A stretch of DNA of 64,000 nt from NCBI GenBank assembly GCA_024402715.1, contig JAKSTF010000002.1, positions 14,230 to 78,229 of the forward strand, given 5' to 3'. Below are positions 28,470-60,737 of the stretch, in pieces. Numbering within the stretch: position 1 is the stretch's first letter; each line of letters starts with the position of its first letter. The notes beneath the pieces are model-generated. The model did not search any database. It was given only the letters and a program-made list of their open reading frames with translations, and had not been told where the DNA came from. Position numbers and translations under genes: made by a program. The stretch comes from Alphaproteobacteria bacterium (GTDB taxonomy: Bacteria; Pseudomonadota; Alphaproteobacteria; Rs-D84).

Positions 28470-28528
28470 TGTATTTGTAGTATATTTCTGTAGAAGTTGT
28501 GTGATGGTTGGAATAGGAGATTATTAGA

Positions 28529-32630: not shown

Positions 32631-32767
32631 TTAATTACCCGCATTTTATGCGGGTTTTCTTGTTTACAGATATTGTAAAAAATGGTATAATACCAACACA
32701 TGGGCGTATTGTTTTTTGTATTAAATTAATTGCAAAAGCATATTTAGCCCCCACAGGGAGAGTATTT

Positions 32768-34978
32768 ATGAAAAAACATAATGGCACAGAAATTTGTAAA
32801 AATGCGGTTGGAACAATGTTTCTGCTGGCAAGTGCATTTTTTGTTTGTTCTACGTTATTATCGATGCGGTCAGTGTTGGCGGATCCGATTGCACCGGTGA
32901 ATGCAACTAACCAACCAACGGGAAATATGTCACCACGTGTCAACGCTACACGTCGCAATACGGCGACTGTACGTACGACAACCAACAACAGGGTTGTGAA
33001 TTCTGGTGGCAATCGGACGACGTCGTCTGTTGCGGGGCGTGGTGTTGCATCGCGTAACCAAATGCCTGCGACACGTTCAACGAATATCACAAACACCCCC
33101 ACGGGAACAACAACTGCACGTGGTGTTTCAACGCGCAGCAGAACAAATATTGCGGGCCGTAGTAATGCAGCAACAACGGTTTCTGCATCTGGGGGACGTT
33201 CAGTTCGTGCCCGTACAGGGGTAAATTCACGGACAACCCAGTCGCGTATTTCATTGCAGGGTACGGCCATTCGTGGCAGTTCAACGGGTATAACAAATAA
33301 TTATACGTATTTGCAGGGGAAATTGTATGCCGGTAATTATTCAAATATTATTGATTCGCAAACCGGTTTGATTTCAGCAGATGCATATTCCACGTGTTTA
33401 GAGGCATATTATACATGTATGGATGAAATCTGTACGGCGCGCAATGCCGCACAACGTCGTTGTGCGTGTGCGGGACGTGTTAAAGCATTTGCAGAAGCTG
33501 AAACGGCACTTGAAACGGCAAATGAAGAATTGATAAAGGTGTCGGGTGAATTGGCATTATTGGTTGCCAATAAAGGAAAGGATGTCAGCAGTGCATTCCA
33601 ATTAACCGATGCTGAAAAAGTTATGAATTGTGTTTCATGGCAAGAAATGGCTGATAGGTATAAAGGAGGTTATACCCAAATATATAAAAAAGATGGTTCT
33701 TATTCGAAGAGCGGATCCGGTGAAGGTTATGTGGATGCTGGTACTTATTGGTGTGAAGCACATGGTTTATACGATAGTGGAAAGTGTTCTGGGGAAAAAG
33801 AACCAAACTATTGTAAGAAAGCTGGAAATACATTTGGGTTTGATATAGCGAATATCGACGGTAATTCCAGTGATATTATGGCGTCGCTGAAATCATGGGC
33901 AGAGGCTAAGGAGTCAACACTAACGATATTAACAGAGAATACAGAAAACTTATCTAAAGTATTTAGTGGTTTATCCAATGTTGTTTCCAATATGTCGGGT
34001 ATAAGTGGTTCGTTAAATAATTCTGACTCTTTACAGGATAGTTTGGCTAAAACATGGGGGTATGATTTGTTTGCGTATGCACATAATAATGTATGCAGTC
34101 GTGTCTTGGATTCGTGTTTTAATGGTATATACGAAGGTTGTGGTACACCACCCAGTGGTGGTAAATGTGCCAATGGTAATACGTCAAATTGTCCATATAA
34201 TTATAACAGTAAAATTAACGTATCATCCGCGGGCGATATAACATTGGTTGAACGTGGTACAAACAGTAATTCGGTTAATGTCAGTGCAACGTGTTTTGGT
34301 TATACATCTGCATCCGGTGATCCGTATGCATCATTGCGGGGGCCGGTTGCGGATGCCCGTCGCAGTGTTATGAATAAATATTTGTTAGATGCAAATGCCG
34401 ATTGTGATGCGTATGGCGAACAATTACGAACAACCGCACAAAATATAGGTTATCAAAAGGTTGCCGCACAACAGGCATTACAACAAAAGCGGTTGGAATT
34501 TGTTCAGGAAGCAGAACAGACAATCGCAACAGAATTTGCCGCGGCCCGCAGTAACTTTAATGAATGTTTGTCTGAATTATATGATTGTTATACGGATACC
34601 GCTGAAACAAATAAAAATTGGTCGGCATCACGTATAAAAACGTATTGTCAACAGGTTGCAAATGTTCCACATTGTTATGAAACAATGGTGTGTGAGGCGC
34701 CAAATAATAAATTGGCGGCGGTTATTACACGTGATGTAGATAATAAGGAGGATACGATGTGCGACAATTCTGAAACATATGAAAAGAACACCTGTCGCAA
34801 TGTTATAACATTAAATGAAATTTTGAGTCCTTCATATGCTGACAAAGGAAATGGTGCCGCAAAAAAGCGTGAAGAATGTTTACAACAGATTGGGATAAAC
34901 GGTGTACGTAAGTGGGATAAAGGTGATACTTCTGAGAAAGCCTCTTGGCCTGATAATGACGAAGATTTGACTGAATAA
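32768..34978 (+). CDS. large secreted Cys-rich protein, paralog B (function unknown)
   Basis: About 736 aa from the ATG at 32768 (GGGAGAG SD). Signal peptide ..SMRSVLA, R/S/T/N-rich tract (res about 40-175), and C-x6-C-x4-C-x9-C-x-C at res 210-234, the same spacing and position as paralog A. Confidence 0.8.
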   Translation: MKKHNGTEICKNAVGTMFLLASAFFVCSTLLSMRSVLADPIAPVNATNQPTGNMSPRVNATRRNTATVRTTTNNRVVNSGGNRTTSSVAGRGVASRNQMPATRSTNITNTPTGTTTARGVSTRSRTNIAGRSNAATTVSASGGRSVRARTGVNSRTTQSRISLQGTAIRGSSTGITNNYTYLQGKLYAGNYSNIIDSQTGLISADAYSTCLEAYYTCMDEICTARNAAQRRCACAGRVKAFAEAETALETANEELIKVSGELALLVANKGKDVSSAFQLTDAEKVMNCVSWQEMADRYKGGYTQIYKKDGSYSKSGSGEGYVDAGTYWCEAHGLYDSGKCSGEKEPNYCKKAGNTFGFDIANIDGNSSDIMASLKSWAEAKESTLTILTENTENLSKVFSGLSNVVSNMSGISGSLNNSDSLQDSLAKTWGYDLFAYAHNNVCSRVLDSCFNGIYEGCGTPPSGGKCANGNTSNCPYNYNSKINVSSAGDITLVERGTNSNSVNVSATCFGYTSASGDPYASLRGPVADARRSVMNKYLLDANADCDAYGEQLRTTAQNIGYQKVAAQQALQQKRLEFVQEAEQTIATEFAAARSNFNECLSELYDCYTDTAETNKNWSASRIKTYCQQVANVPHCYETMVCEAPNNKLAAVITRDVDNKEDTMCDNSETYEKNTCRNVITLNEILSPSYADKGNGAAKKREECLQQIGINGVRKWDKGDTSEKASWPDNDEDLTE

Positions 34979-42291: not shown

Positions 42292-42753
42292 TTATTCCAC
42301 GATAAATGAAATTTGGTTCATTGCATTGGTCGTGCAATGTGAAATTCCATCAGACATTTCATACCCGTTAACCAAAATAATTTTGGCCCAATCTGGTTTT
42401 ACGTATGCAAAATATTCACAATCACCATTGTTTAAATTCATTAAATTGATGGAAAAAGATAATCCGTCATATGATGATGTAATATTCCATCCCTTATCGC
42501 CAATTGGGGGAATGTCAGATTTTAATGCCCCGGCTTTGATTAAGTATTCAACAGATACCCCATCATAATTTCCGCGCATTCCAAATAATAATTTGGTGTC
42601 GTTGGCAATTTGTTCCAACTGTATGTCGGCCATTTTTCGTATATGGCTGTGGCGTATTGCATGGTACATGTGAACACTGGATGCTGTAATAATTCCTGCA
42701 ATTGCCATTGTCCCGATTAATTCGATCAAGGAACGGCCAGATTCGTTTTTCAT
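42292..42753 (-). CDS. type IV pilin / pseudopilin-like protein
   Basis: Leader MKNESG, then RSLIELIGTMAIAGII (Gly at -1, Glu at +5, hydrophobic helix), the class III signal. 153 aa with two Cys near the C-terminus. Confidence 0.75.
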   Translation of the reverse strand: MKNESGRSLIELIGTMAIAGIITASSVHMYHAIRHSHIRKMADIQLEQIANDTKLLFGMRGNYDGVSVEYLIKAGALKSDIPPIGDKGWNITSSYDGLSFSINLMNLNNGDCEYFAYVKPDWAKIILVNGYEMSDGISHCTTNAMNQISFIVE

Positions 42754-44451: not shown

Positions 44452-44760
44452 TTATTTCAGATTTGTAATAAAATCTGGAAATGGTGAGTCGTCGTCATCG
44501 GTGCCGTCTGTATTTTCAGATGATTCAACCGCGGCCGTTTCAGCGGCTATTTTTTCGGCTGGCGTCCTGCTTTGATCGATTTTATTTTGTTCTTCGTTAA
44601 CAATACGTCCATAATGTTCTGCCGCTTGTAATAAACGTTCGCGTTCAATTTCATCGGCGGTTTGACGTGCTAAATCCATATATTGTTTTCTTTTTTGACG
44701 CCATTTGTGACAGCGCTGAATCATCGAACCGACAGACGATTGTTGTTTTTTATTTTGCAT
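44452..44760 (-). CDS. DUF4167-like small basic/acidic protein
   Basis: KQYMDLARQTADEIERERLLQAAEHYGRI resembles the alphaproteobacterial DUF4167 core (..LAR......E...QHAEHY.R). Acidic C-terminus. Confidence 0.5.
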   Translation of the reverse strand: MQNKKQQSSVGSMIQRCHKWRQKRKQYMDLARQTADEIERERLLQAAEHYGRIVNEEQNKIDQSRTPAEKIAAETAAVESSENTDGTDDDDSPFPDFITNLK

Positions 44761-44917
44761 TTTGTTTCTTTATTTATTGGAATTCAATTGGACGTTAATG
44801 TGTGCTGATATAAACATTATCGTCAACCCGTAACGGGGTAAAATATAAAACATCTTAAAACCGATTGCAATATTTTTTTTCAATTGCTATTCTGTAATTT
44901 GTAGGAGGCCTTTTATT

Positions 44918-46276
44918 TTGTATTCGCGTCAAGATGGAAATTTTTTATTACAGGCATTGTTGGCGTTAACCTTGGTATTTATGTTTGTTCCGTTTGTTGC
45001 AAAAAATTTGGTTGAACGGAATTTAAATGCACAAATGTATGCGACAACAAAACAAATCGAGGTCGCACAAACGGCAGCGCGAATTTATGTGCGTGAAAAT
45101 GCATCTAAATTGAATTATGGAACGGTGGTTATCCGTGGTGATGTTTTTTCGGATTTATTAGAACCATATGGATTGCCGTTGGGCTTTGTTCCAAAAACTG
45201 CGTTGGGACAAGATATAGTGTTGGTTTTAGATAAAACAGAAAATCAGATAAATGCATATTTGAAAATAATTGGTGGTAATTTAACACAATTAAAAATTGC
45301 AGAATTGGCGCGTCGTGTTGGTTTTTATGCGATGCCAGATGGCAATGCATTATCGGTTGGATTGGCGTTGGAGTCCGGATATGTAGATGTTGTATCTAGA
45401 AACGGTACAGACGGAATTAATAATGCTTTTTTGACAGATTTAGATATGGGCGGTTTTGTTGTTGATAATGTTGGTGATGTTTTTGGACAAGATGGTGAAT
45501 TTGAAACCGCAGAATTTGGGATGTTGAATATATTGGGGATTGAAAATGGACGTCGTTCAAAAAATGTGATAAAAATGGTTACATCGGATAAAACGATATT
45601 TCAAACCAAAGATGGAACGGCGGCATTGACGTTGGTTCGTGGTAATATGAGTGCTGAAAATGTTACGGCCCGTACAGTGTCAAAGTTTGGAGATGGCGGA
45701 ATTTTTAATGCCAATGATGCGGCGGCAAACGAATTTGCAATGGCGGCGGGATACACGAATTTTGTTGGCCCAATTGATTGGAATGTGCATGGTAACGTTG
45801 TGACCAGTCGTATAAATTTAAGTGTTAATCAGTTGGATATAGAATCTTATTTGGATGCGGCACGTGGTCAGGATGTTTACATAAATACAGATGATTTGGA
45901 ATATTCGGCATCCAGTGGTATTGATACCGATTATATAAATGCGTCCAATATAACATTACGAAATCAAACGTCTCGGGCATTGTCTATGGGAAGAAGTGGT
46001 GGTATATTGTTGGATATTCGGCCGGCTGGAACATCTGTATTGCCGGATATTTCTGTGGATAATATTGATAATGGCGAAATTGCAATTTTGGCAAATGCGC
46101 AGGCTGATAATTCAAAAACGGTTGATTGTAAATCAATTATATCTGGTTTGGGTGGTGTGTATAATGCAAAATCTGTGGCGCAAAATATTGTTTGCCAATA
46201 TGTTTTTTTGCAGCGTTTGGAACACAGAATAAATATGAAACAATGTCTGTTGGATGGAAAAAGTGGCTGTAATTAA
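44918..46276 (+). CDS. large pilin-like protein P1 (prepilin-type N-terminus, TTG start)
   Basis: AGGAGG SD, leader MYSRQDG, then NFLLQALLALTLVFMFVPFV (Gln at +5). 452 aa with C-terminal Cys pairs. Confidence 0.65.
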   Translation: MYSRQDGNFLLQALLALTLVFMFVPFVAKNLVERNLNAQMYATTKQIEVAQTAARIYVRENASKLNYGTVVIRGDVFSDLLEPYGLPLGFVPKTALGQDIVLVLDKTENQINAYLKIIGGNLTQLKIAELARRVGFYAMPDGNALSVGLALESGYVDVVSRNGTDGINNAFLTDLDMGGFVVDNVGDVFGQDGEFETAEFGMLNILGIENGRRSKNVIKMVTSDKTIFQTKDGTAALTLVRGNMSAENVTARTVSKFGDGGIFNANDAAANEFAMAAGYTNFVGPIDWNVHGNVVTSRINLSVNQLDIESYLDAARGQDVYINTDDLEYSASSGIDTDYINASNITLRNQTSRALSMGRSGGILLDIRPAGTSVLPDISVDNIDNGEIAILANAQADNSKTVDCKSIISGLGGVYNAKSVAQNIVCQYVFLQRLEHRINMKQCLLDGKSGCN

Positions 46277-47465
46277 TAAATTTGTTTTTATTAATCATGA
46301 ATTTGGTTCCTCTATGACTGAGGTTGTTTTATCATTGGCGATTATTGCAATGGCAACACCGTTTTTATATGGTCAGATGCAACGGGCCAATGATACTGTT
46401 CGTGATGTATCTGTTGCCAATCAAATTGTATCCAGTCGTGATAATGTATTGAATTTTATTCGTTTAAATCAAGAATCGTGGCCTGATGTGGCACAAATAA
46501 ATTTATCATCAGATGATTTAAAAAATATGTCCAGTGATGCGGTTGCGGGATTTATTGATAAGTATAAAGTTAATGGCTTGTCTGTTACAGATGTTTATTT
46601 AGCATTTGATATTGATAATAATTATGTGCGTGCAAATAAAATAGCGCGTCGTATTGGAGATGCCGCGGCGGTTGTGATGACAGATGGAATCGTTTATGGA
46701 AATACGTGGGCGGTTGCAGTGCCAAATTTTGAACCAGGATATTTGGTTTACAAAATATCGCGTGATGTTTCGGAAATTGATTCGTCGCGTTATTTGCATC
46801 GCACGGCATCTGGCGATTTAAATTTAAATGTTATGCAACGTGATTTGAATATGTCTGGGCATAACATTGAAAATGTTGGAAAAATCGAAGCTCAAAGTGT
46901 TCGGGGCAAAGGTGTGATAACAACATTTGTTGAAACGGATGAATTAGTTGCAGGAGCCGTACATTTTTCATCGGGGGCTAATTTAGAAGGTGGAAATGCA
47001 CAATTTGAAAATATTCGTGTCTCTGGTGATGTGTCTGGTTTTCGCAATATATATGCAGATAATATGAATGGTGTGACGTATACAACATTGGGGCGTATTA
47101 TTGCAGATCGTGCAAATGTTTCAGAAACATTAAATGTTGCCAAAGATTTTGTTGTTAAATCTGATTATGTTCGAACAATTTCTGGGTTTTCCGGTATTAA
47201 GGCCAATCGTGTCGCAGTGCCGTTTTTACGGACAGAACAATTGTTGTTTTTTGAAAATTTTGGTTTGACGGTGTCCGGAGAATTGCTAAATTCAGCCACC
47301 GCCCCATTGAAAATCGGGACTTGGGTATATCCATCGACGTCACTGCCAAATTTTCACAGCATAACATTTTCACGGACCGAAATCCCAACCGTGCCACAGA
47401 AAGATGAATTTTACATTATAATGGGTGATAATTGGCAGTCATTCCAGCCGGAGAAATTGCAATGA
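46254..47465 (+). CDS. large pilin-like protein P2
   Basis: Leader ...NHEFG, then SSMTEVVLSLAIIAMATPFL (Glu at +5). Overlaps the P1 stop by 23 nt. 403 aa. Confidence 0.65.
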   Translation: MEKVAVINKFVFINHEFGSSMTEVVLSLAIIAMATPFLYGQMQRANDTVRDVSVANQIVSSRDNVLNFIRLNQESWPDVAQINLSSDDLKNMSSDAVAGFIDKYKVNGLSVTDVYLAFDIDNNYVRANKIARRIGDAAAVVMTDGIVYGNTWAVAVPNFEPGYLVYKISRDVSEIDSSRYLHRTASGDLNLNVMQRDLNMSGHNIENVGKIEAQSVRGKGVITTFVETDELVAGAVHFSSGANLEGGNAQFENIRVSGDVSGFRNIYADNMNGVTYTTLGRIIADRANVSETLNVAKDFVVKSDYVRTISGFSGIKANRVAVPFLRTEQLLFFENFGLTVSGELLNSATAPLKIGTWVYPSTSLPNFHSITFSRTEIPTVPQKDEFYIIMGDNWQSFQPEKLQ

Positions 47466-48769
47466 TTAAACAAAAATTTAATTTTTTGAAAAATAATTCA
47501 GATGCAGGAAATATGTTAATTGAATTATTGTTAAGTGTTGCGTTGGTTACGGTTATAATGCCATTTGTTATTCAATATCATCGTAGAACTGTGCGCCGTG
47601 CAGAAAATATTGCTATTACACAACAGATGGATGCTGTTCGTGTTGCATTGGAACGTTATATTGCACAAAATCGCGAACATTTATTGAATACTGTTGGCAA
47701 TACAATTACACGTGTAAATATGGATGCTTTGGCTGAATATGGCGCAGATATTCAACATAATGCGAATTATCAATTACGAATATTAAAATCAGGCACCGCA
47801 GATGGTCGTGCATCTTTACAGGGGGTGATTGTTTATAACAGTGATGATATCACCCCAATTCGAACCCGGGAAATTGTTGCGGTGGGTGGGCAAAATATTG
47901 GTTTTGTTGATGGAAAACGGACGTATGGTGCGTATGGTACGTGGCGTATGGATAATGTCGATTTAGGAATTGGTGGATTAAATGGTATTGTTAAAACCAC
48001 GACTGTAAATCAAGATAATGCATTATATTTGTGGCGGTCGCCATCAGATGATGCGGCGGATGCAACAATGAATGTCGCATTGAATTTGGGGCAACACGAT
48101 TTAAAAAACGTTTTATCATTAAATACAACAATGATGAATATAAATGATCGGTTAAAATTTGGTGCAGGTGTTGCTAATACGGTTGTTTTTCAAAACAGAA
48201 CCGCGATTGATTCTAATTATCAAACAAAAAATGCCAGTGTAAATGGTGTATTGTCTGCGGATGGACGCTCGATGGATGTTGCAAAATCTTTTAAATTGGA
48301 AGATGTCGGAAAATTTTCTGGTTTTAATGTTAGAAATTTATGGGTTTCAAAATTAACGTTACCAGGCTTTTCTGTTGACAGCAATTCGGATAAACCTGCA
48401 ATATTACGTATTAATGAAACATTGGATATGGTTTTGGGGCGTATAAATGCATTGATGGTGACCGTTGGTTTTTCCGGATCGGTTACCCCACGGTTGATTG
48501 TTCGTAATAAAATTTCTGATTCAATTAATCCGGATTATTATTGGGACATAGATAATGGAACTGCAAATTTTAATGATATGATATTATCTGAATTAAATCG
48601 AATGGCACCATTGGTTTTGAAACAAGAACAGGTGTCCGGATCTGATTCAACACGAATATTTTCATCTATATCATCAAATTCAAATGCCACAATTGCAGAT
48701 TTTGCCAATGCAATTACTGAAATTCAGGCCCGTGTGCGTGCAAAATATCGTTTGTTGAATTTAGAATAA
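47462..48769 (+). CDS. large pilin-like protein P3
   Basis: ATG at 47462 overlaps the P2 stop as ATGA, with GGAGAA SD. Leader MIKQKFNFLKNNSDAG, then NMLIELLLSVALVTVIMPFV (Glu at +5). Confidence 0.7.
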   Translation: MIKQKFNFLKNNSDAGNMLIELLLSVALVTVIMPFVIQYHRRTVRRAENIAITQQMDAVRVALERYIAQNREHLLNTVGNTITRVNMDALAEYGADIQHNANYQLRILKSGTADGRASLQGVIVYNSDDITPIRTREIVAVGGQNIGFVDGKRTYGAYGTWRMDNVDLGIGGLNGIVKTTTVNQDNALYLWRSPSDDAADATMNVALNLGQHDLKNVLSLNTTMMNINDRLKFGAGVANTVVFQNRTAIDSNYQTKNASVNGVLSADGRSMDVAKSFKLEDVGKFSGFNVRNLWVSKLTLPGFSVDSNSDKPAILRINETLDMVLGRINALMVTVGFSGSVTPRLIVRNKISDSINPDYYWDIDNGTANFNDMILSELNRMAPLVLKQEQVSGSDSTRIFSSISSNSNATIADFANAITEIQARVRAKYRLLNLE

Positions 48770-48789
48770 TTTATGATATAAATGTTCGT

Positions 48790-49302
48790 ATGAAAACAGT
48801 ATGCAATTTTTGTAAAACAGAATATTCTATTGATGGTGCAACATCTGGCCCTGTTCGGTGTGCGGTTTGTGGTTACGTGTGGAATGTTACGCATGCACCG
48901 CGTCGTGGGGCGGTATTAACATTATTTGCTGCAATGTGTGCAGCATTGGCCGCGTTGGTTTTTGCGGCGGCGGTTATGATTACAAATCATAATTCTGCAA
49001 AGAAGATGCGACAACCATTGGTTGTTCGTGTAACGGATACCCGTACGGCACCAGATGCGGTTGGTGTACCACGATTTATTGTAACGGGGGTTGTAGAAAA
49101 TAAATCTGATGAAATATATGGGGCCCCGGATTTGGTTGCGATTTCATATGATGCCAATGGCACGGTTATTGGACGGCAAAAGTTTATTCCATCGGCAACA
49201 TTGATTGATGCCGGGACATCTGTCCCGTTTAGCCAGGTTTTAACCAGTCCTGCTGATAAAGTTAAAAAGATAATGGTTAAATTTTCAACCCAGGGTGAAT
49301 AA
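48790..49302 (+). CDS. ZitP-like protein: MJ0042-type zinc ribbon + TM + DUF3426-like domain
   Basis: N-terminal CNFC...(17)...CAVC zinc ribbon, one TM (VLTLFAAMCAALAALVFAAAVMI), and a C-terminal beta-rich domain of about 95 aa. Confidence 0.6.
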   Translation: MKTVCNFCKTEYSIDGATSGPVRCAVCGYVWNVTHAPRRGAVLTLFAAMCAALAALVFAAAVMITNHNSAKKMRQPLVVRVTDTRTAPDAVGVPRFIVTGVVENKSDEIYGAPDLVAISYDANGTVIGRQKFIPSATLIDAGTSVPFSQVLTSPADKVKKIMVKFSTQGE

Positions 49303-49303
49303 T

Positions 49304-49771
49304 ATGAAACGTACATGTTTTTTACTGGTGATAATTGTATCAATGATAACGGGGGGGGCATTTTCTGCAACCGATATGTCAAAGCCGCGGGTCAGCCTTT
49401 TTTCCACCAGTACGGATTGGCAAGCTTTGACGGGGTTGCAATTAAACCAATACCACGGGACATTTATTACCAATACGAAATTGGTGGCCAAGGGCTTGGA
49501 ATTATATTATTTGGATTCGTTCCCATGTTATGGGTTGGGCTATGGGGTTCGTGTATGGGTTGGCCCAGATGGTTCGCATGATGGAACGTTAAATATTGTA
49601 TGTTTATATCCACCGAAACAATTAAATTTTGCATATCGTAATTCAAAACAAAATGCAGACCAGGGGATTAGTACCGGAATGTTGGTTTGCAATGTTGATG
49701 TAAATGGACGTGATATAGAAATTAATTTATCAAAATGTGATAAATCTAAAAATTGGTCAGAATACAAATAA
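49304..49771 (+). CDS. hypothetical secreted protein with a G8 tract in the signal-peptide region
   Basis: MKRTCFLLVIIVSMITGGAFSA signal peptide. ATG at 49304 lies 2 nt after the upstream stop. Confidence 0.55.
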   Translation: MKRTCFLLVIIVSMITGGAFSATDMSKPRVSLFSTSTDWQALTGLQLNQYHGTFITNTKLVAKGLELYYLDSFPCYGLGYGVRVWVGPDGSHDGTLNIVCLYPPKQLNFAYRNSKQNADQGISTGMLVCNVDVNGRDIEINLSKCDKSKNWSEYK

Positions 49772-49787
49772 TTGTGGGTATATTGAT

Positions 49788-50750
49788 ATGGGTGAAATGC
49801 GTGATTTTATTGTGGATTTGAATTCTGTTGGTATGCGTTTGGATAAATATTTGGCTGTGCAAATGCCGGATTTTTCGCGTGCCCAGATTCAGCGTTTTAC
49901 AGTTTATGTAAATGGAAATATAGCAAAATTTTCAATAAAATTGCGTGCAAATGATTGTGTTTCTGTTGATGTTGCTGTGCCAAATAAAAATGTGGTTGCA
50001 ATGGAAAAAACTTTATCGGATTTGGATTTTGATATCTTATACGAAGATAATGATATAATTGTAATTGATAAACCGCGTGGTGTTGTTATGTATCCATCGG
50101 CGGGAAATACAACGGGAACGTTGGTTCAAAGTTTATTGTCACATACTAATTTGTCTGCGCTGGGCGGTGATATTCGCCCCGGTGTTGTTCATCGTTTGGA
50201 TAAAGATACCAGTGGTGTAATGGTTTTTGCAAAATCTGATGCTGCATTTCGTGGGTTGGTTGATATATTTTCCCGTCATGATTTGACACGGCGTTATGTT
50301 GCGTTTGTTTGGGGGGTGCCGAATTGGGATGGCGCCGAAATCACCGGTAATATTGCACGTTCATCCCGCAATCGGAAAAAAATGTCGATGGTTAAATCTG
50401 GGGGCAAAACAGCCCAAACAAATGTAAATGTTATGTCTGTTTGGACACGTTGTGGGATATCTGCGTTTCGTTGTACATTATTAACGGGACGGACACACCA
50501 AATACGTGTTCATTTATCTGCGCATGGTTTTCCAGTATTGTGTGATCCATTGTACGGACGCGGAACAAATCGTTTGGCCAGTGTAAAAAATCGTGAATTA
50601 TTAGAGTTTTTGCGTACACATGATGGTCAGATGTTGCATGCCGAATATTTGGAATTTGTTCATCCCGTGACCCGTGAAAAAATGCATTTTAAATCACATC
50701 TGCCTGCTGATATGTTGGAATTACAGGCGATTTTGGATGATATCGGATAA
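49788..50750 (+). CDS. rluD: 23S rRNA pseudouridine synthase, RluA/RluD family
   Basis: N-terminal S4 domain (RLDKYLA), catalytic HRLDKDTSGVMVFAKS, and GRTHQIRVH. Confidence 0.9.
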   Translation: MGEMRDFIVDLNSVGMRLDKYLAVQMPDFSRAQIQRFTVYVNGNIAKFSIKLRANDCVSVDVAVPNKNVVAMEKTLSDLDFDILYEDNDIIVIDKPRGVVMYPSAGNTTGTLVQSLLSHTNLSALGGDIRPGVVHRLDKDTSGVMVFAKSDAAFRGLVDIFSRHDLTRRYVAFVWGVPNWDGAEITGNIARSSRNRKKMSMVKSGGKTAQTNVNVMSVWTRCGISAFRCTLLTGRTHQIRVHLSAHGFPVLCDPLYGRGTNRLASVKNRELLEFLRTHDGQMLHAEYLEFVHPVTREKMHFKSHLPADMLELQAILDDIG

Positions 50751-50843
50751 TACCCGTTAATAAATCCGGAATAATTTTATGTTTTTGGCTTTTTAAACCC
50801 CGCGTTTTATGATATAATGATACATAAAATATGGAGTGAGTCG

Positions 50844-53800
50844 ATGTTTTTTATGAAAAAAACTGTTAGTTTTCTGGCGTTTATGGCATGTTTTTCAAGT
50901 GTATTTGCTGTAACGGCACGGCCCAGTGTTGTGACAACTGTGGCATCGCGTTCAAACATGCCAAATTTTATAAACCCAAATAATCAGTTTAAATATACCA
51001 CCACAAATGGGCGTCCTGCCACGACGGTTACAACGACGGTGACGGGGACTACAAATTTGATGGATAATGCAGAATGCATCGACGCATATACCGAATGTAT
51101 AACCGCGGATGACGTATGTGGTGCAAATTTCGAAGAATGCACGACAACCGAATTATTTCATGGCCAAATGGCAAAATGTTCCAGTACATTATACCAATGC
51201 AAATCGGATGGTATTACCGCATTGTTTGGGACAAATTCTGTGACCGCGTTGGGTGCTGTAACCAACGGTACCGCCGGTAAAGAGGGTGCAACCTATACAT
51301 ATCCAACGGTTACCAGTATTATGGGACAACGTGTTGCGGGTGGTGCGATTTCGAATCGGTATGATACATCACAATGTGTAAAAAAATATACAAATTGTGT
51401 TCACAAAGATACCGTATGTGGTCCCGATTTTGAATTGTGTACAGGTATAAAAGAATTTAAAAAGCAAATGTCATTTTGTGCATCGACATTGGTCCGTTGC
51501 CCCAAAGAGGGTATAATTGCCCTGTTTGGACAAGATATTGATATAAACGATGATGGTTCGTTAAAGAGTAACACAAACGGAATTAAATTGGATGGTAAAG
51601 ACAGTCGTATTGGTCAAATGATTGATGACGGTGCGGCATTGGCGGCGAAAAACGCTGTTAATACCTGTTACAAGGTTGTAGACAGTTGTATTATTAGTGC
51701 CTGTAAAGATAATCCGTTCAAATGTAAGACCGATGTGTTTGTTTCTTTGACAGATGCAGTGGAACAGATAGAAAACAATTCTGAATATAATAGTTTGGCG
51801 GAAAAATATAATTCTTTGTTGAAACAAGAGTATTCATCGGATGTAACAACAAATAAAACGGTAGAAAAGTATATACGAAGCAAATGTTTGGATACAATTG
51901 GTGGTAATAAATATTGTCAATTGGTTGTTAAAGGGACGGCTAGTGCCAAACAAATTATAGATCCAGAAGAATTGGCTGATGATTATACAGAAGTTTTTGA
52001 TGATTTGTATAATGCACGTATGAATGCAGCGGCACATGAAAAAATTAATACATTGGCGGAACAATTTGATACCAAGGCCAAAAATAAATGCTATGAAACG
52101 ATTAAATCATGTGCAATGCGTTCGTGTGGTAATGGTAACGGTGCGGCATGTTATGCATCCGTATTTGGTACAGATGGTGTTACAAATGGCAGCATAAATG
52201 GAACAAAGTCATACAGCAATATTCAGGCTGGGTGCGAGGCAATCGTTAACACCGATCCGTATTGCATTTATTCAAAGGTTGACGAAAGTGGTAAAGGCAT
52301 AACATCAGATACGTTAAATACGTATGCGGATTCTTCTGCGTTTGAAATATTATTCCCAGCCTATGATGGTACAACAAAATCTGATCCGATTGGGGCGGTT
52401 GCAAAATTAAATGCGTCACTGTCATCGGCATTTAATGCATCGGCAATTGCACAAAAACGTAAACAGTGCATTAAGACCGCACAAAATTGTGTAAAATCAA
52501 TGTGTGGGGATGATTATGAAAATTGTTATCGTAATCGTACAGATGCTATGTCTAAGATCACAAGCACAAGTAAAAACGATTATAATGAAAGTATGAACAG
52601 GGTTGGTGGTGTATTGGATCGTACAATTGTTGTCGGTTTGTGTATGAATACGGTAAGAGATAGTGCAGCTTGCGAAGATCATTTGGCAATTAAATTGGCG
52701 GAAATATCTGCAACATATGCAAATAAAAATGCCGCAGACAGTTGGGGAAACAGCACAACAGTTCGTAATGGTTGGTTGGGTGCAGGTGCCTCGGATGGGG
52801 CAGAATATGATGAAAATGAAGCAAAGGAAGAGACGTCCGAAGAAAAAGCGGCTGAAAATTTATTTGCTGAAATTTTGGATGATATTGAAGTAGAAGTCCA
52901 GGCAAAATATAACGCAAAATTGACCAAGGAACAGAACGTTTGTTTGAAAAATAATGGTGGGGTCAGCGGTATTGATTCTGGAACATATATGTGGGCCAAA
53001 TTAAAAAATGGCAAGGTTCCGGATGGTTATTCAACAAATGGTTTGGTTGACACGGATTTGAGTGCATCAAATGATTTGTATGGTTCATTCTGTCGTGTGC
53101 GTGTTACAATGACATCAACCGATCCAAAGATTAAAAAATTCTTGGAAGGCAATTCTGCAAAAGCAACGCGGTATTTTGCGGTTGGTGATGCATTTGTCTG
53201 TGGATCATGGTTAACATCGCAGGATAAAGATGGAGAAGATGGAGAAGATGGAGATAGTGATCTTACTAAAATTGAAAAACTTGTGAAAGGTGATGTTATA
53301 TCCAGTTCCACAGAAAAACGTCAGGAAAGAAATAAAGTAATGGCGACGGCGATATCCGCTTTGGCTGGTGGTGTTGGTGGTGGCGTATTGGGTAATAAAA
53401 TCGGAAACGGTGATATTTTACCAAATTTGACCAGTAATAAGGCTGATAACAAAAAAATAAGTGACTGTAATAATTATGTAAATTACTTAAGTGGGGTTAG
53501 CAAAGACTCGTTACGTACTATCGTGGAATCTCGGTTGGATGCGTTGAACAAGCTTAATTCAGGATTTGGCGTAAAGTCTGAATGGGCAAACTTAGATAGT
53601 AGTTGTGCTAATAATAATAATAATAATAATATTACTGAGTGTGCTGCGAATCTTATTAAAGATGCCATGAATGGAATTAAATGTTCCAGTCTTGCTGAAC
53701 AAAAAGGTGTATTTAAAGGTAAATTAACTGGTGCACAATTTGGTACGGCCATTGGGGCAGCGGTTGGTTCGTTTGGGGCTGGTTTCGCCGCGTATAAAAT

Positions 53801-53951
53801 AGCGGATTCTAGCCAGCAAATAAAGAATGCTGAAGCCAAAGATGCCGCATGGGAAGAATTTATGGCGGAAATCGGTTCCAAAATCCGGTGCTATATCGGC
53901 ACGACCGAGGCCGGCGGTTACGGTGATACGGTAATGTTAACCGTTGAATAA
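50844..53951 (+). CDS. very large secreted Cys-rich protein, relative C (function unknown)
   Basis: About 1035 aa with signal peptide MFFMKKTVSFLAFMACFSSVFA and a short T/R-rich tract. Contains a duplicated six-Cys module, further C-x6-C-x4-C units, an acidic DGEDGEDGD stretch, an Asn7 run, and two Gly-zipper hydrophobic segments near the C-terminus. Confidence 0.8.
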   Translation: MFFMKKTVSFLAFMACFSSVFAVTARPSVVTTVASRSNMPNFINPNNQFKYTTTNGRPATTVTTTVTGTTNLMDNAECIDAYTECITADDVCGANFEECTTTELFHGQMAKCSSTLYQCKSDGITALFGTNSVTALGAVTNGTAGKEGATYTYPTVTSIMGQRVAGGAISNRYDTSQCVKKYTNCVHKDTVCGPDFELCTGIKEFKKQMSFCASTLVRCPKEGIIALFGQDIDINDDGSLKSNTNGIKLDGKDSRIGQMIDDGAALAAKNAVNTCYKVVDSCIISACKDNPFKCKTDVFVSLTDAVEQIENNSEYNSLAEKYNSLLKQEYSSDVTTNKTVEKYIRSKCLDTIGGNKYCQLVVKGTASAKQIIDPEELADDYTEVFDDLYNARMNAAAHEKINTLAEQFDTKAKNKCYETIKSCAMRSCGNGNGAACYASVFGTDGVTNGSINGTKSYSNIQAGCEAIVNTDPYCIYSKVDESGKGITSDTLNTYADSSAFEILFPAYDGTTKSDPIGAVAKLNASLSSAFNASAIAQKRKQCIKTAQNCVKSMCGDDYENCYRNRTDAMSKITSTSKNDYNESMNRVGGVLDRTIVVGLCMNTVRDSAACEDHLAIKLAEISATYANKNAADSWGNSTTVRNGWLGAGASDGAEYDENEAKEETSEEKAAENLFAEILDDIEVEVQAKYNAKLTKEQNVCLKNNGGVSGIDSGTYMWAKLKNGKVPDGYSTNGLVDTDLSASNDLYGSFCRVRVTMTSTDPKIKKFLEGNSAKATRYFAVGDAFVCGSWLTSQDKDGEDGEDGDSDLTKIEKLVKGDVISSSTEKRQERNKVMATAISALAGGVGGGVLGNKIGNGDILPNLTSNKADNKKISDCNNYVNYLSGVSKDSLRTIVESRLDALNKLNSGFGVKSEWANLDSSCANNNNNNNITECAANLIKDAMNGIKCSSLAEQKGVFKGKLTGAQFGTAIGAAVGSFGAGFAAYKIADSSQQIKNAEAKDAAWEEFMAEIGSKIRCYIGTTEAGGYGDTVMLTVE

Positions 53952-53952
53952 T

Positions 53953-53980
53953 AAAAAATCCCCCAATTGGGGGATTTTTT
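53953..53980 (+). terminator. rho-independent (bidirectional) terminator
   Basis: aaaaaatccccc-aatt-gggggatttttt. Confidence 0.8.
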
Positions 53981-54257: not shown

Positions 54258-55253
54258 TTATGGTCTGCGATTTAATATACTGATAACAACCTGTTTAACG
54301 GTATCTGCTTCGGATGGTGTGCTTTCCGCTATCAATAATGTCAATGCAAATAATGTGGCACTATCTATAATATTTTGACCATTATTCCCATACAATATCT
54401 TGTTTTTATCCAAGAAATATAAAAAGCAACTGGCGCCGATACGTTTGTTTCCATCAACAAAACTGTGATTTTTTACGATTAAATATAGTAAATTTGCCGC
54501 TTTTTCTTCCAATGTTGGATACAAGTCTTTGCCATCAAATGTTTGATATATTTGACCGATGGAACTATAAAAACTTTCATCTTTGGGTTTTGCGAATACA
54601 TCACTGGCAAAATTTCCCTTCATTTTATCAACCACGGATAAAAATTCATCTGGGGGAATTACGATTGCGGTTGATTCTGTTTTTCCTTGGAAATCCAATG
54701 TTTTATGGTCAAAATCATCAAGCAAATTCAACCCCTTTACAAAATCATTCAGAACACGTGATACCTGTTGCGCCTGGTCAATGGTTTGTGCTTGATTTTC
54801 AATACTGCGACTCATTAAATCTAATGTTTTTTGCAACATTAACATCTTTGATTTTTGTTCGGATAACATCTGTTGATTTACAACATACCCATTTAACAAA
54901 TAATCTTTTAATGTTTTTGTTGCCCAGATACGAAATTGTGTTGCTGTTTTAGATTTTACACGATATCCCACAGACAGAATCATATCAAGGTTGTAATGCG
55001 AAATTTGACGAGAAACCCTGCGTTTCCCTTCTGAACGAACTATTAAGAAATCCTTAATAGTTGAATTTTCGTCCAATTCGCCTTCGGATATAATATTCTT
55101 AATATGCATATTTATATTAGGTATCGTCGTTCCAAACAATTTTGATATTGCGTCCTGGGTTAACCATACCGTGTCATCCTGAACACGAACATCAATTTGT
55201 GTTTGCCCGTTTTCAGCAATATATATAGCAATTTGATTATTTACATCTGTCAT
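54258..55253 (-). CDS. RhuM-family N-terminal domain fused to a Fic/Doc domain protein
   Basis: N-terminus ..LSVGYRVKSKTATQFRIWATKTLKDYL (RhuM-like). The C-terminus carries HSFVDGNKRIGA (Fic/Doc HxFx[DE]GN[GK]R motif). Confidence 0.8.
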   Translation of the reverse strand: MTDVNNQIAIYIAENGQTQIDVRVQDDTVWLTQDAISKLFGTTIPNINMHIKNIISEGELDENSTIKDFLIVRSEGKRRVSRQISHYNLDMILSVGYRVKSKTATQFRIWATKTLKDYLLNGYVVNQQMLSEQKSKMLMLQKTLDLMSRSIENQAQTIDQAQQVSRVLNDFVKGLNLLDDFDHKTLDFQGKTESTAIVIPPDEFLSVVDKMKGNFASDVFAKPKDESFYSSIGQIYQTFDGKDLYPTLEEKAANLLYLIVKNHSFVDGNKRIGASCFLYFLDKNKILYGNNGQNIIDSATLFALTLLIAESTPSEADTVKQVVISILNRRP

Positions 55254-55487: not shown

Positions 55488-56798
55488 TTACAAATTGTCT
55501 TTGATTAATTTCCATATTTTTTCGGTTTGCGCCTTTGATAAATTCCATGTATTTGTTAAATCTGACTTAATTTGATTTATCAATCCGGTTCCACTATCAA
55601 TATTGCCAGCCAATTTTTTTGCAATATCTTCGGTGCCATCAATAAAATATATGACCAAACAAATTGATAATAATGTTGAAATAAAACCCAAGTCCGTTGG
55701 GGTTGGAATATGTGTTTGTATATCAATCGGCATCAACCATGATAATAACGCCCCACAAAATCCAATTGATACCGCCAATGATACATAATATAACGATGCA
55801 TTTATGAATTTTTTTATAACAGATTCCAATTTAAATTTATCTGTTTTAAATAAGCCCATAAAACTGTTTATAATATTGCCAACAATTCCATCATATTTTG
55901 TTTTTGCCGTTGTTTCTGCAATTGCGGTCAATGGTAATAATAAAATTGATAAAAACAAATCCAATATTACCCCCAATGAAATAAATGCAAATTTAAATGC
56001 GGCCAAAATAAATAAAACAACAAATGCAAAACCAATTAAAAATGTAAAACCGCTGTTGCCGATACCAAAACGCATCCATTGAAATCCGGTGGCAACGCCC
56101 GTGTACAAAAATCCGGTTAATCGCGTTGGAATACACATTAAACCGGCCGCCGCATCCGGGGCAATTAACATTTGTTGAGATGTGTTTGCAGCGGCATATT
56201 GATATATTGCATTGCAGGTATCTGGAATTTGTATCCCGGCAAAGTTTGTTACCGTATTTAAAATCATGTCAGATACATATACGCCAAATAATATTATTGG
56301 GGTTGCAACCGCCATAAATATTTTTGCGGGACCAAAGCGTAATATTATGATGCAAATGGCAATTTTTACCCCTTGGCGGACAATTGATTGTAATAAATCC
56401 ATGATATTACTGCTGCTTTGCATCATTTTATATGTTTCGCCCATTATCCAAAATGCGAACATGGTAACCATAAACAATATTGCAAATCTAAATAATGATA
56501 TATCCAGCATGTGGCCCACCAACGAAATGCCGTTCATCAATGCCAGGCCAACCTTGGCCTCGATCGGGACAAAATCATCAACCAATTGCACGTGTTGGAT
56601 ATTTTTTCCAAATTGATCTAAATCAGTGGATAAATTTGATGTAATATTCGTGATTGTTGTTTGATCAATTATATTAGTGTTGTCGCCACTTTCGGAATTT
56701 TGTGGCGCATTATCGCCAAATGCATTACACAGTCCGGCGTTTATTATAAATATACCACAAATAATAATTTTAAAAAATTTTGTTAAATACTGTTTCAT
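55488..56798 (-). CDS. polytopic membrane protein M1, VirB6/TrbL-like (tentative)
   Basis: 436 aa with a signal peptide and at least 6 TM segments. Central LLLPLTAIAETTAKTKYDG segment, analogous to the P-L-x..W/T region of VirB6. Last gene of a 4-gene coupled operon. Confidence 0.45.
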   Translation of the reverse strand: MKQYLTKFFKIIICGIFIINAGLCNAFGDNAPQNSESGDNTNIIDQTTITNITSNLSTDLDQFGKNIQHVQLVDDFVPIEAKVGLALMNGISLVGHMLDISLFRFAILFMVTMFAFWIMGETYKMMQSSSNIMDLLQSIVRQGVKIAICIIILRFGPAKIFMAVATPIILFGVYVSDMILNTVTNFAGIQIPDTCNAIYQYAAANTSQQMLIAPDAAAGLMCIPTRLTGFLYTGVATGFQWMRFGIGNSGFTFLIGFAFVVLFILAAFKFAFISLGVILDLFLSILLLPLTAIAETTAKTKYDGIVGNIINSFMGLFKTDKFKLESVIKKFINASLYYVSLAVSIGFCGALLSWLMPIDIQTHIPTPTDLGFISTLLSICLVIYFIDGTEDIAKKLAGNIDSGTGLINQIKSDLTNTWNLSKAQTEKIWKLIKDNL

Positions 56799-56804
56799 TT
56801 TATT

Positions 56805-58238
56805 TTATGAATTAATCCATCCCCGATTTTTTGCAAATGCAGTAATATATTTTTGTGCCTGATTATATGTGTTTTTACCCAATGTTTTTAATGCACCGCC
56901 AAAATCAAAATTGTCAGATGCAGGTTTAACTAAAACATCATCAATTTTTGGCGATATTACATAGTAATATAAAAAGAATATCAAAATCATAATCATTATG
57001 AATTCCCATCCATCTGACATAAAATCAAATGCATGCGGATATTTACGTTCAACCATTGCACGTTGTGCAGTAAAACATGTTATAAATTTATCTTTGTCTA
57101 ATACCCCAGATACGCTTGCCTTTTCTTCACAGGTTTTGAATACATTTACAACAGATAATGTTTGATTGTCTGGATTTTGAATATTTTGTCCAAATGTTGG
57201 TGGAAAAATAGCCGTATATCCGTCCATCGGGGCTGGAAAATATGCATCGGCTGCAACGGTTATTGTTGCGTATGTAATTATTGTTTTAAGGGTTATTGAA
57301 ATTATGCTTAGGGCCGAGGTTACAATCATATTTATTGCACCATTAATTGCGCCTGAGGCAACTGACCATGTTTTGTCCCATGCCGCCGCTGCCAATAAAA
57401 ATGGTAAAAATATTATTATAAATATTAATTTGAAAATAATTGTTAAAATTTGAAAAAATAAATCAAATCCGATTATTATGAACATAATAACCAATGTTAA
57501 TCCCGCCATCCATGTAAATATCCCGCCACCCATACCCATCCATGCATAATTCATCAATGAAAAACCACCTGCGACACCGGCCAACATAACGCTGTTTAAA
57601 TTTCCGATAACGCACATGAATGATTGAAATACAGGTCCCATAACATCGTTTGCAGCGTTTGTTAATGCATAGCATGATGCACCCTCTATTGCGCCCGTTG
57701 CCATCATTGACAATACACTGCCAATATATAATACGGGGGTAATTAAAACGTATGATACTGCACGTAATATTGTGTTGCCACCCACGCCTAAAACACCAAT
57801 TAATGCCCCAACGATTAAAATGCGAATTAATAATTTACGAATCGTTTCAAACCATTTGCTAAAATCTATTTTCTTTTCATTTGTGTCCAATTTGGTTGTT
57901 GTTTTTGCAGCATCTAAGATGTATTGGCCAGAATATATAAATAAGTAAATACCAAATCCAATCGCCATTAAAACCCACAGGGCGTTTACAATTGTAGACC
58001 AAAATTTTTCTGTGGCATCACCCAATATGCCAAATGTTTTTTCCAATATTTCACATAAAAAGCAACCATTTGTATTTGCAATATTACCGTTTGCCCCAAC
58101 GGCGTTCAAAAAACGGTCCATGCTGGAATATGTAATTGCACCACCGCCAATTGATGTGTAAACATACCATATCGCAATGCTGATAGTGATTATCGGTAAA
58201 ATGGCTTTGACTAAAAAAGAAATAATTACTTTTTTCAT
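56805..58238 (-). CDS. polytopic membrane protein M2, VirB6/TrbL-like (tentative)
   Basis: 477 aa with an N-terminal C-x2-C (GCFLCEILEKTF), many TM segments, and IFLPFLLAAAAWDKTW. The start overlaps the M3 stop (ATGA). Confidence 0.45.
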   Translation of the reverse strand: MKKVIISFLVKAILPIITISIAIWYVYTSIGGGAITYSSMDRFLNAVGANGNIANTNGCFLCEILEKTFGILGDATEKFWSTIVNALWVLMAIGFGIYLFIYSGQYILDAAKTTTKLDTNEKKIDFSKWFETIRKLLIRILIVGALIGVLGVGGNTILRAVSYVLITPVLYIGSVLSMMATGAIEGASCYALTNAANDVMGPVFQSFMCVIGNLNSVMLAGVAGGFSLMNYAWMGMGGGIFTWMAGLTLVIMFIIIGFDLFFQILTIIFKLIFIIIFLPFLLAAAAWDKTWSVASGAINGAINMIVTSALSIISITLKTIITYATITVAADAYFPAPMDGYTAIFPPTFGQNIQNPDNQTLSVVNVFKTCEEKASVSGVLDKDKFITCFTAQRAMVERKYPHAFDFMSDGWEFIMIMILIFFLYYYVISPKIDDVLVKPASDNFDFGGALKTLGKNTYNQAQKYITAFAKNRGWINS

Positions 58239-59413
58239 GGTTTGATTTTTTTAATAATATCGTTAATTTTCTGACCAAAATTTTTTACGTTATCAGGTAA
58301 TCTGAACATATCAGTGGCCATATTTTCATTCATTTTTGTATCCGCCGATACTTTGAATACATCCAATATCATTTTTTGAATTGATGGAATCTTTTTTGAA
58401 ATAAAATCTAAAACATATACCAATACGATTGTGCTGAAAATTCCCAATATCGCCAGATTGTTTTCTGATAATTGGGCATTAAATATATCGCCTGATAATA
58501 TTTTTGACATTAAATCTGATGCTGATACACCCTGGACGGTAAAGAATTTTGCAATTATTACCATAATTATTGTATATGAAATTACGGCCGCCACCAGGCC
58601 AACAATGGCATTAATAACACGTTTGAAATATCCCGTCCCAAATTCTTTGCCAATCCCAGCCATCCAAGATGGAACGTCTTTGGCACCATTAAACGCGACC
58701 ATTGATAACGATAACGGAAAGAAAAATGAAAAATATGCCATGGCGATTATAATGTCTACGAAATAAAAACAATAACGTAAGAACAATTCAAAAAATTTAT
58801 ACGATATAAACAAACCGATAAAAAATATAATTATATGTTTAATAAACATTCCGATACTTAACATGGCGGACCATGAAAACGCCTGATCCATTATTGCAAT
58901 GCCCAATTTAATAAACGATTGAAACATTGTAACAGATGATTTCATTAACGTTATTATTGTGTCCCGTAATTGTGGTCGGAAAAATCCGTCCTGGGATATT
59001 TTTTCTGGTTGATATGTTACGCGTTCATTAACGGTTGCCGGGTCGGTTTGCAACATTGAATCTGTATAAATTAATGCGATTTGTGCGGCCGGTTCAAATG
59101 TTATGGTTGTTAAAAAACGTGGGAATATTACGCCGGTACTAAGTAAAGCGAATGCAACAATTGCATTTATAAATACGCGTTGTAATGAATCTTTGTACCA
59201 TGTATCTTGGGCGTTGTTTTCACGAATGTTTTTCCATACGACGTTTAAAATATAAAATGCCAATAATATGATAAACAATATCATGCAAATAATTGCCATT
59301 TTATGGTATATTGCCGCCGCCATCGTTGAAACGATTTGAAACAACCGGTCAAATACAGCACAGCCCCAGCACTGAACCGATGAATCAATCAAAATGTTTG
59401 CCAAATCTGTCAT
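58235..59413 (-). CDS. polytopic membrane protein M3, VirB6/TrbL-like (tentative)
   Basis: 392 aa with N-terminal QCWGCAVFDRLFQIVSTMAAAIY, closely matching M5 SCWSCQMFSDILAVLSKIAANAY. Also FFFPLSLSMVAFNGAKDVPSW. Confidence 0.45.
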   Translation of the reverse strand: MTDLANILIDSSVQCWGCAVFDRLFQIVSTMAAAIYHKMAIICMILFIILLAFYILNVVWKNIRENNAQDTWYKDSLQRVFINAIVAFALLSTGVIFPRFLTTITFEPAAQIALIYTDSMLQTDPATVNERVTYQPEKISQDGFFRPQLRDTIITLMKSSVTMFQSFIKLGIAIMDQAFSWSAMLSIGMFIKHIIIFFIGLFISYKFFELFLRYCFYFVDIIIAMAYFSFFFPLSLSMVAFNGAKDVPSWMAGIGKEFGTGYFKRVINAIVGLVAAVISYTIIMVIIAKFFTVQGVSASDLMSKILSGDIFNAQLSENNLAILGIFSTIVLVYVLDFISKKIPSIQKMILDVFKVSADTKMNENMATDMFRLPDNVKNFGQKINDIIKKIKP

Positions 59414-59415
59414 TG

Positions 59416-60675: not shown

Positions 60676-60696
60676 ATTTGTATATTTTTTATCAAT

Positions 60697-60726
60697 TATA
60701 TCACATTTAAGGCAAAATGTGATATA
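60697..60726. promoter_or_regulatory. perfect 12-bp-arm palindrome in the M4/M5 divergent promoter region
   Basis: tatatcacattt-aaggca-aaatgtgatata, centred in the 62-bp gap between the M4 start (60675) and the M5 start (60738). Confidence 0.7.
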
Positions 60727-60737
60727 CTTTAACATAA

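Follow-up and report, generated by a model that had tools for sequence, protein, structure and literature searches.

A window of 64 kb of alphaproteobacterial DNA (64,000 nucleotides of contig JAKSTF010000002.1, GenBank assembly GCA_024402715.1, order Rs-D84) contains three genes, P1, P2 and P3, which lie head to tail on the + strand within 44918–48769 and encode proteins with prepilin-type N-termini that resemble PilV, the minor pilin and adhesin of conjugative pili. The coordinates of these genes and of the features associated with them are collected in Table 1. The G+C content was ~38% throughout the window, and the P1–P3 locus was compositionally like its surroundings. The DNA is from an uncultured member of the genus Candidatus Enterousia (order Rs-D84), and a copy of P3 with 94% identity was found on a contig from a metagenome-assembled genome (MAG) of this genus. 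A first, model-made reading of the sequence (here the initial annotation) had reported three overlapping open reading frames (ORFs) of 400–450 amino acids (aa), and these are real as described, with lengths of 452, 403 and 435 aa. A Shine-Dalgarno box of P1, AGGAGG (44903–44908), lies 9 nt 5' of the TTG start. For P3, alignment with 33 homologues placed the start at ATG 47462 ('MIKQKFNF'), and with the start corrected in this way the gene forms the previously noted ATGA overlap with the stop codon of P2. The overlap of 23 nt between P1 and P2, given in the same annotation, holds if P2 starts at ATG 46254; the 400 aa version of P2 at NCBI (P0241) implies the GTG at 46263, in which case the overlap is 14 nt.

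Table 1. Coordinates of P1–P3, of their central motifs and of associated genes. Positions are those of the window; a slash follows the conserved Gly −1.
Feature	Position	Strand	Description
P1	44918–46276	+	452 aa PilV-like pilin paralogue; TTG start; leader MYSRQDG, then NFLLQ
P2	46254–47465	+	403 aa PilV-like pilin paralogue; possible alternative start GTG 46263; G/SSMTE
P3	47462–48769	+	435 aa PilV-like pilin paralogue; G/NMLIE; ORF opens at TTG 47432
P1 central PilV motif	45428–45472	+	LTDLDMGGFVVDNVG; residues 171–185; aligned to 'MNTAIDMGGNxINNAG' of Shufflon_N proteins
P2 central PilV motif	46833–46880	+	MQRDLNMSGHNIENVG; residues 194–209; profile alignment with PilV
P3 central PilV motif	48068–48112	+	MNVALNLGQHDLKNV; residues 203–217 of the 435 aa protein; profile alignment with PilV
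ZitP-like protein	48790–49302	+	170 aa; zinc ribbon CxxC-x19-CxxC, one transmembrane segment (39–67), periplasmic FxLYD/DUF3426-like domain
Protein with hydrophobic N-terminal segment	49295–49771	+	158 aa; no Pfam or NCBIfam family; conserved position (135–165 aa) in all relatives
Type IV pilin-like protein	42292–42753	−	153 aa; MKNESG/RSLIE; Glu +5; Cys 112, 140; candidate major pilin

Each of the three proteins starts with a short leader ending in Gly −1, and the junctions can be read directly from the sequence as G/NFLLQ in P1, G/SSMTE in P2 and G/NMLIE in P3. Hydropathy analysis gave a single hydrophobic segment per protein, which was N-terminal in all three. Gly −1, Glu +5 and Pro +18 were invariant or nearly so within the P2 and P3 family alignments, and the P1 family combined Gly −1 and Pro +18 with a conserved Gln +5 that was present in all 119 P1-family sequences. 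We fetched 464 homologues of at least 250 aa each, including members down to ~18% identity, and the prepilin pattern (Gly −1, Glu or Gln +5, Pro +18) was kept in 445 of them, with Glu in 326 and Gln in the 119 of the P1 family. The pattern was absent from only 14 of the 464, and these were mostly N-terminally truncated. Because it is kept in 445 of 464 homologues, the prepilin signature of P1–P3 is far beyond chance, and chance ORFs were rejected as an explanation of the three genes. The class III signals in the initial annotation, with Gly −1 throughout, Glu +5 in P2 and P3 and Gln in P1, were confirmed at the level of the individual residues. In the P1 family alignment, four C-terminal Cys residues (404, 426, 443 and 451) were invariant, which would fit an extracytoplasmic location of this protein.

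Homologues were grouped in 639 clusters for P3, 941 for P1 and 1026 for P2; all were unnamed or called 'hypothetical protein [Alphaproteobacteria bacterium]', and none had a precomputed Pfam domain. Pairwise BLASTP among P1–P3, and between them and IncI2 PilV, was marginal, and the relationship is visible by profiles only. In profile-profile comparison, P3 matched P2 at 97.6% (E 3.4e-12) and P1 at 96.4% (E 1.1e-9), and P1 matched P2 at 66.6% (E 5e-5). These mutual matches span the helix, a domain of ~200 residues and an internal motif common to the three proteins at equivalent alignment positions, and by this comparison P1, P2 and P3 are paralogues. The shared internal motif pointed out in the initial annotation is real and is the central motif of PilV.

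PilV, with a length of roughly 430 aa, serves as minor pilin and adhesin in the type IVb 'thin' pili of IncI plasmids, PAPI-1-like islands and Salmonella SPI-7. With a P3 profile, an exhaustive HMMER search of 1.84 billion representatives found 339 relatives, all of which keep the same N-terminus and most of which lack any Pfam domain, even in branches of 600–1200 aa. Seven of the matches (E 1e-8 to 1e-12) carried Shufflon_N (PF04917), with E down to 4e-74 for this domain. Among these seven, P0478 shares 58% identity with a gene whose annotation reads 'shufflon system plasmid conjugative transfer pilus tip adhesin PilV' and matches 2,835 plasmid records, mostly conjugative. Aligned against the seven PilV proteins with hhalign, P3 scored 99.7% (E 2e-26, 252 columns), P2 98.9% (E 1.7e-17, 200 columns) and P1 95.6% (E 1.1e-8, 191 columns), and the alignments included the central motif. 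A hidden Markov model (HMM) made from the seven PilV proteins found the P3, P2 and P1 of the window at E 6.4e-26, 1.5e-15 and 1.5e-6, respectively; in reverse, the HMMs of P3, P2 and P1 found IncI2 PilV at 4e-12, 9e-8 and 5e-4.

The similarity can be followed along the sequences. IncI2 PilV (424 aa) has the N-terminus MKKTDKG/VSLLEVLLVIGIMVMVIP (KG/VSLLEV...IP), in which Gly −1, Glu +5 and Pro +18 are spaced as in P2 and P3. Further on, the PilV consensus 'DYLYR.AVPGRP.LNRMNTAIDMGGN.INNAG' lines up with 'ALYLWR.PSD...DATM...LNLGGHDI.N' in P3, 'KYLHR.TSGED.LNVM.RDLNM..H.VYNV' in P2 and 'FLTDLDMGGF.F.N.G' in P1. Judged by these profile comparisons, P1–P3 are distantly homologous to the constant region of PilV (Shufflon_N), and on the same footing they are PilV-like minor pilins of type IVb that are encoded on a chromosome and inherited vertically. 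The initial annotation had suggested a resemblance to PilV and shufflon-type minor pilins, and the hhalign and reciprocal HMM matches show this to be correct for all three. Its interpretation as a whole survives as regards the prepilin N-termini and the PilV motif. Its description of the proteins as 'giant' does not, since IncI2 PilV has 424 aa and a length of 400–450 aa is normal for PilV, and the idea of an unusual gene layout also needs correcting (see below).

Two observations concern the wider PilV family. Residues 226–343 of IncI2 PilV (L007 13977–15251) are similar to the long tail fibres of Aeromonas phages and to crAss-like phage proteins annotated 'peptidase' or hypothetical (tblastn, with E from 1e-9 to 6e-4), which suggests a shaft module common to pilus adhesins and phage tail fibres. 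This region lies just past the motif, which accounts for the likeness to tail fibres also mentioned in the initial annotation; that likeness applies to this part of PilV and does not extend to P1–P3, for which the viral comparisons are given below. Moreover, there is a separate PilV-like branch with proteins of 900–1230 aa (representatives P0451, P0474 and P0496), which was found at 79 metagenome loci (L014–L092), many of them labelled human gut. Its genes are solitary, on contigs with a G+C content of ~48%, and the proteins combine the N-terminus 'G/SMMVEALAMLGLI..VTP.LYKKAAERT' with a conserved C-terminal domain that contains 'PAYTSVMHDIKLTTRGG.RLSDILP'. No pilus assembly gene was found in 958 kb of flanks around the 79 loci.

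AlphaFold run from 34 close homologues gave a predicted local distance difference test (pLDDT) score of 49.5, and the Foldseek matches of that model were meaningless. An AlphaFold2 model of P3 from a 78-sequence alignment including distant relatives reached a pLDDT of 82.7. In this model, a 57-residue N-terminal helix (13–69) is followed by an alpha/beta domain (82–179), a loop with the motif, a beta-rich region (236–295) and a C-terminal three-helix unit (376–431); the C-terminal three-helix region is conserved. A long N-terminal helix that begins with the hydrophobic stretch and leads into beta-rich domains is the arrangement typical of type IV pilin-like proteins. In sequence searches of the PDB (phmmer and profile), P1–P3 matched only the N-terminal helices of pilins (E about 0.02), and a profile of genuine PilV proteins likewise matched only these helices. 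Because neither the PilV profile nor Foldseek (see below) gave a PDB match beyond the N-terminal helices, the Shufflon_N fold appears to be without a solved structure so far.

In relatives ranging from 52% to ~30% identity, the block P1-P2-P3, ZitP-like gene, ~150 aa gene and RluD was kept even where the upstream neighbours differed, and all three paralogues were always present in the relatives examined. The genes are flanked by housekeeping genes (DnaX, RluD and LpxD) in conserved synteny across genera. The ZitP-like gene lies directly 3' of P3 in every relative examined. Its product matched Pfam Zn_ribbon_4 (E 3.9e-5), the MJ0042-type model TIGR02098 (23.2 bits, cut-off 20.9) and FxLYD (36.2 bits, cut-off 23); the match to DUF3426 (E 0.0028, 18.2 bits) was under the Pfam cut-off of 27.7. 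The 158 aa protein encoded next is a possible accessory protein. On the other side of the locus, the orthologues of the 153 aa pilin-like protein in two relatives (L002 and L003) were matched by IncI2 PilS in phmmer (E about 1e-6). Between this gene and P1, and divergent from P1, lies a gene for a DUF4167-like protein of 102 aa (44452–44760, − strand), whose position is kept (105–116 aa) in every relative examined, L013 with its otherwise different upstream genes included. Only chance-level short repeats and no sfx-like inverted repeats were found in 44700–49900, and no recombinase (Rci) was found among the window ORFs scanned. A shufflon was rejected on the grounds of these two results.

No intrinsic terminator follows P1–P3 until past a gene for a 1044 aa Cys-rich protein (50817–53951), and this gene may belong to the same transcription unit as P1–P3. 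In all relatives, a conserved counterpart of 1039–1239 aa comes directly after RluD. Two further Cys-rich proteins of the window, with 776 aa (32648–34978) and 735 aa (16776–18983), are weakly paralogous (E 7e-5). All three Cys-rich proteins are without a family and have a hydrophobic stretch near the N-terminus, and they may be secreted. A bidirectional terminator-like hairpin (53959–53973) stands just before a gene for a RhuM-family/Fic-domain protein (54258–55253, − strand), which separates the Cys-rich gene from an array of five adjacent genes for multi-pass membrane proteins (55488–62693). Four members of this array are encoded on the − strand (436, 477, 392 and 463 aa) and one on the + strand (651 aa); none had a Pfam match. 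The 436 aa protein is a paralogue of the 477 aa protein (E about 1e-9), and the 392 aa protein is a paralogue of the 651 aa protein (E about 3e-16). The array is also present on contig L008, and its layout recalls the VirB6 arrays of Rickettsiales; TrbL/VirB6 models gave no match. Elsewhere in the window there is a complete rRNA operon (16S, tRNA, 23S and 5S; 22018–26962), followed by a region of low G+C content (27000–30000; 0.30 at 28–30 kb), in which there are two ORFs, one of 215 aa and one of 300 aa, without a family.

With the PilV proteins of R64 (IncI1) and TP114 (IncI2) and PilV2 of PAPI-1, P1–P3 share the prepilin leader ending in Gly −1 and followed by Glu +5 and Pro +18, the length of ~400–450 aa, a homologous N-terminal part of ~200–250 aa that ends in the motif 'YL.R...LN.M...L.MGG..I.N', and C-terminal domains that diverge and presumably do the binding. 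They differ in that P1 has Gln at +5 and in that they lie among chromosomal housekeeping genes, neither on a conjugative element nor in a pilK-pilV operon. Whereas the IncI system varies one PilV by means of a DNA-inversion shufflon, P1–P3 are three fixed, translationally coupled tandem copies, with neither sfx-like repeats nor an Rci recombinase at the locus. What is new in P1–P3 in comparison with known PilV is that they exist in three copies on a chromosome, lack a shufflon and have diverged beyond the reach of the current Pfam and NCBIfam family models.

Other large minor pilins offer looser parallels. CofB of colonization factor antigen III (CFA/III) of enterotoxigenic Escherichia coli (ETEC) and TcpB of the toxin-coregulated pilus of Vibrio cholerae are single large type IVb minor pilins, ~3x the size of the major pilin, which form a tip trimer that primes assembly. 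P1–P3 could form a heterotrimeric equivalent, with the differences that CofB and TcpB are homotrimers encoded by single genes and that no sequence or Foldseek similarity to P1–P3 was detected. In type II secretion, GspK is the apical pseudopilus subunit and has no Glu +5. As with GspK-GspI-GspJ, three pilin-like proteins are co-encoded here and one of them, P1, lacks Glu +5; there is, however, no detectable homology beyond the hydrophobic helix, and sizes and domain content are very different. ZitP of Caulobacter crescentus has a zinc ribbon, one transmembrane segment and a periplasmic DUF3426 domain, the last of which is required for pilus biogenesis (PMC5182063); the 170 aa protein has the zinc ribbon and the transmembrane segment, with a DUF3426-like periplasmic domain. 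The Caulobacter protein is longer (311 aa) and serves the Tad/Cpa (type IVc) pilus through CpaM; the DUF3426 match of the 170 aa protein is below the Pfam cut-off, and no CpaM was seen beside P1–P3.

Taken together, we consider it reasonably probable that P1–P3 are ancient PilV paralogues acting as cleaved type IVb-like minor pilins and adhesins. The three proteins would be made with a class III (prepilin) leader, a prepilin peptidase would cleave after the conserved Gly, and the N-terminal helix (~55 residues) would dock each protein into a type IV filament. Such a filament would consist mainly of a small pilin, for which the 153 aa protein is the candidate, and would present the Shufflon_N-like domain, along with the C-terminal domains specific to each paralogue, as adhesins. 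Because of the translational coupling, P1, P2 and P3 would be produced in roughly equal amounts, and they would form a tip-located priming and adhesion complex. A three-membered complex of this kind is plausible in view of the coupling together with the conserved loss of Glu +5 in P1, which parallels GspK. The ZitP-like zinc-finger/DUF3426 membrane protein may position or support assembly. A more detailed version, in which P1–P3 assemble 1:1:1 into a heterotrimeric tip with P1 (without Glu +5) at the apex that latches onto partner cells, possibly with polar, ZitP-guided assembly and with machinery that is too divergent or too minimal for annotation, is tentative and, in our view, rather doubtful.

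The role of such proteins would be attachment to the surfaces of partner or host cells. PilV selects target cells as a minor pilin and adhesin, and binding to target surfaces, for example to lipopolysaccharide (LPS), is known for PilV of R64, TP114 and PAPI-1 (PMC9045228). Candidatus Enterousia/Rs-D84 are common gut bacteria with genomes of about 0.75–1.0 Mb, which lack respiration and standard nutrient transporters and are thought to be partner-dependent (PMC12306168). Given this partner-dependent lifestyle, the most likely role is attachment to cells of a partner or host, and P1–P3 probably help the bacterium to attach to other cells.

A number of results weigh against this model of PilV-like minor pilins in a filament. 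Within the window, where Pfam scans covered most of the larger ORFs, there is no gene for an ATPase, a platform protein, a secretin or a prepilin peptidase. Searches of all window ORFs of at least 50 aa with IncI2 PilN, PilO, PilP, PilQ, PilR, PilT and PilU and with VirB11 (phmmer) returned nothing, and nor did a secretion-ATPase Walker A regular expression run over the window; all three approaches bear out the remark in the initial annotation that no assembly genes are present in the window. No assembly gene was found in the flanks of the relatives either (L001–L003 and L011–L013; up to 10 kb, less on short contigs). A literature search gave no link of Rs-D84 or RF32 with pili, and the paper on the gene content of Rs-D84 describes no flagella, and type IV pili appear in it only in connection with a different lineage (PMC12306168). 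P1–P3 themselves had no match at E ≤ 1 to Shufflon_N (PF04917) or to N_methyl (PF07963) in the Pfam scan, and the NCBIfam scan gave no PilV match; neither scan gave anything usable. The candidate major pilin matched N_methyl (E 0.0044) and PilS_N (E 0.025) below cut-off in both cases, which is weak support; BLASTP of the window copy against PilS gave nothing, and the gene, which lies near the operon in most relatives, is not beside it in L013. Since ZitP is widespread in Alphaproteobacteria, its adjacency to P3 could be functionally unrelated. Finally, a whole-chain Foldseek search of the better P3 model against the PDB gave a best E of 0.34 and no pilin, CofB and TcpB included.

The lack of assembly genes in the window and in the flanks of relatives is the main weakness of the pilus model. 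It also speaks for an alternative in which P1–P3 derive from PilV and no longer enter a filament, the machinery having been lost in the reduced genome and the proteins serving another envelope function, either anchored in the membrane by an uncleaved helix or in the periplasm. No region that we examined contained an assembly gene, type IV pili have not been reported for Rs-D84 (PMC12306168), and the PilV-like relatives of ~1000 aa in other gut bacteria are also far from assembly genes. It is, however, difficult to see why Gly −1 and Glu +5 should be near-invariant in all three paralogues and across hundreds of sequences if there were no machinery, and a small pilin with the same signature has been retained, so that we regard this alternative as unlikely. 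Apart from recognition by the peptidase and packing of the filament, no role is known for Gly −1 and Glu +5, and their near-invariance in a shrinking genome suggests that assembly machinery exists in this lineage. A distance to such machinery would not be peculiar, since type IVa pili commonly have their minor-pilin operon apart from the assembly genes; such a layout would be unusual only against the one-operon R64/IncI-type IVb arrangement, and the unusual organisation proposed in the initial annotation needs this correction.

In another alternative, P1–P3 would be minor pseudopilins in a machine that resembles type II secretion or competence systems, and would form the tip of a short periplasmic piston rather than an adhesive pilus. 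The set of three proteins, one without Glu +5, recalls the GspK-GspI-GspJ tip, and the N-termini faintly matched XpsI (E 0.16) and ComGE (E 0.079). Both matches cover the hydrophobic helix only and lie far below the cut-offs (for XpsI, 12 bits with a cut-off of 150). Significant homology was found to PilV adhesins and not to GspH, GspI, GspJ or GspK, proteins of 400–450 aa are far larger than GspI and GspJ, and no gsp genes are nearby. We judge this possibility to be improbable, and somewhat more so than the loss of the filament. Membership of the Gsp pseudopilins was rejected with the XpsI match at E 0.16 over the helix alone, and that of the Tad pseudopilins with no match of P1–P3 to the TadE-like family PF07811 at E ≤ 1. 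A phage or prophage origin, in which P1–P3 would be tail-fibre-like and their pilin-like N-termini coincidental, could draw on the tail-fibre-like residues 226–343 of PilV and on Foldseek matches in BFVD to uncharacterised Caudovirales and S74 tail-fibre proteins, which were weak (best E 1.6e-4, template-modelling score (TM) 0.13). Against this, P1–P3 had no match in the PHROG scan and no relatives in 2.9 million viral contigs, and they lie in housekeeping-gene synteny with typical local G+C content and a conserved prepilin signature. A phage origin is thereby essentially refuted, and we attach almost no weight to it.

The finding would be of greater interest if a heterotrimeric tip or an unconventional assembly route proved to be true. 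For the family, clusters of 'hypothetical proteins' that number over 2,600 (639 + 941 + 1026 matches) are now readable as PilV-like pilins, and the P1–P3 families supply sequences that are missed by the current Pfam and NCBIfam models. The PilV/Shufflon_N superfamily is thereby extended well past conjugative elements, and fixed paralogues, in place of a DNA-inversion shufflon, would represent a second way to diversify a PilV adhesin. For Enterousia/Rs-D84, P1–P3 are a concrete candidate for the attachment apparatus.

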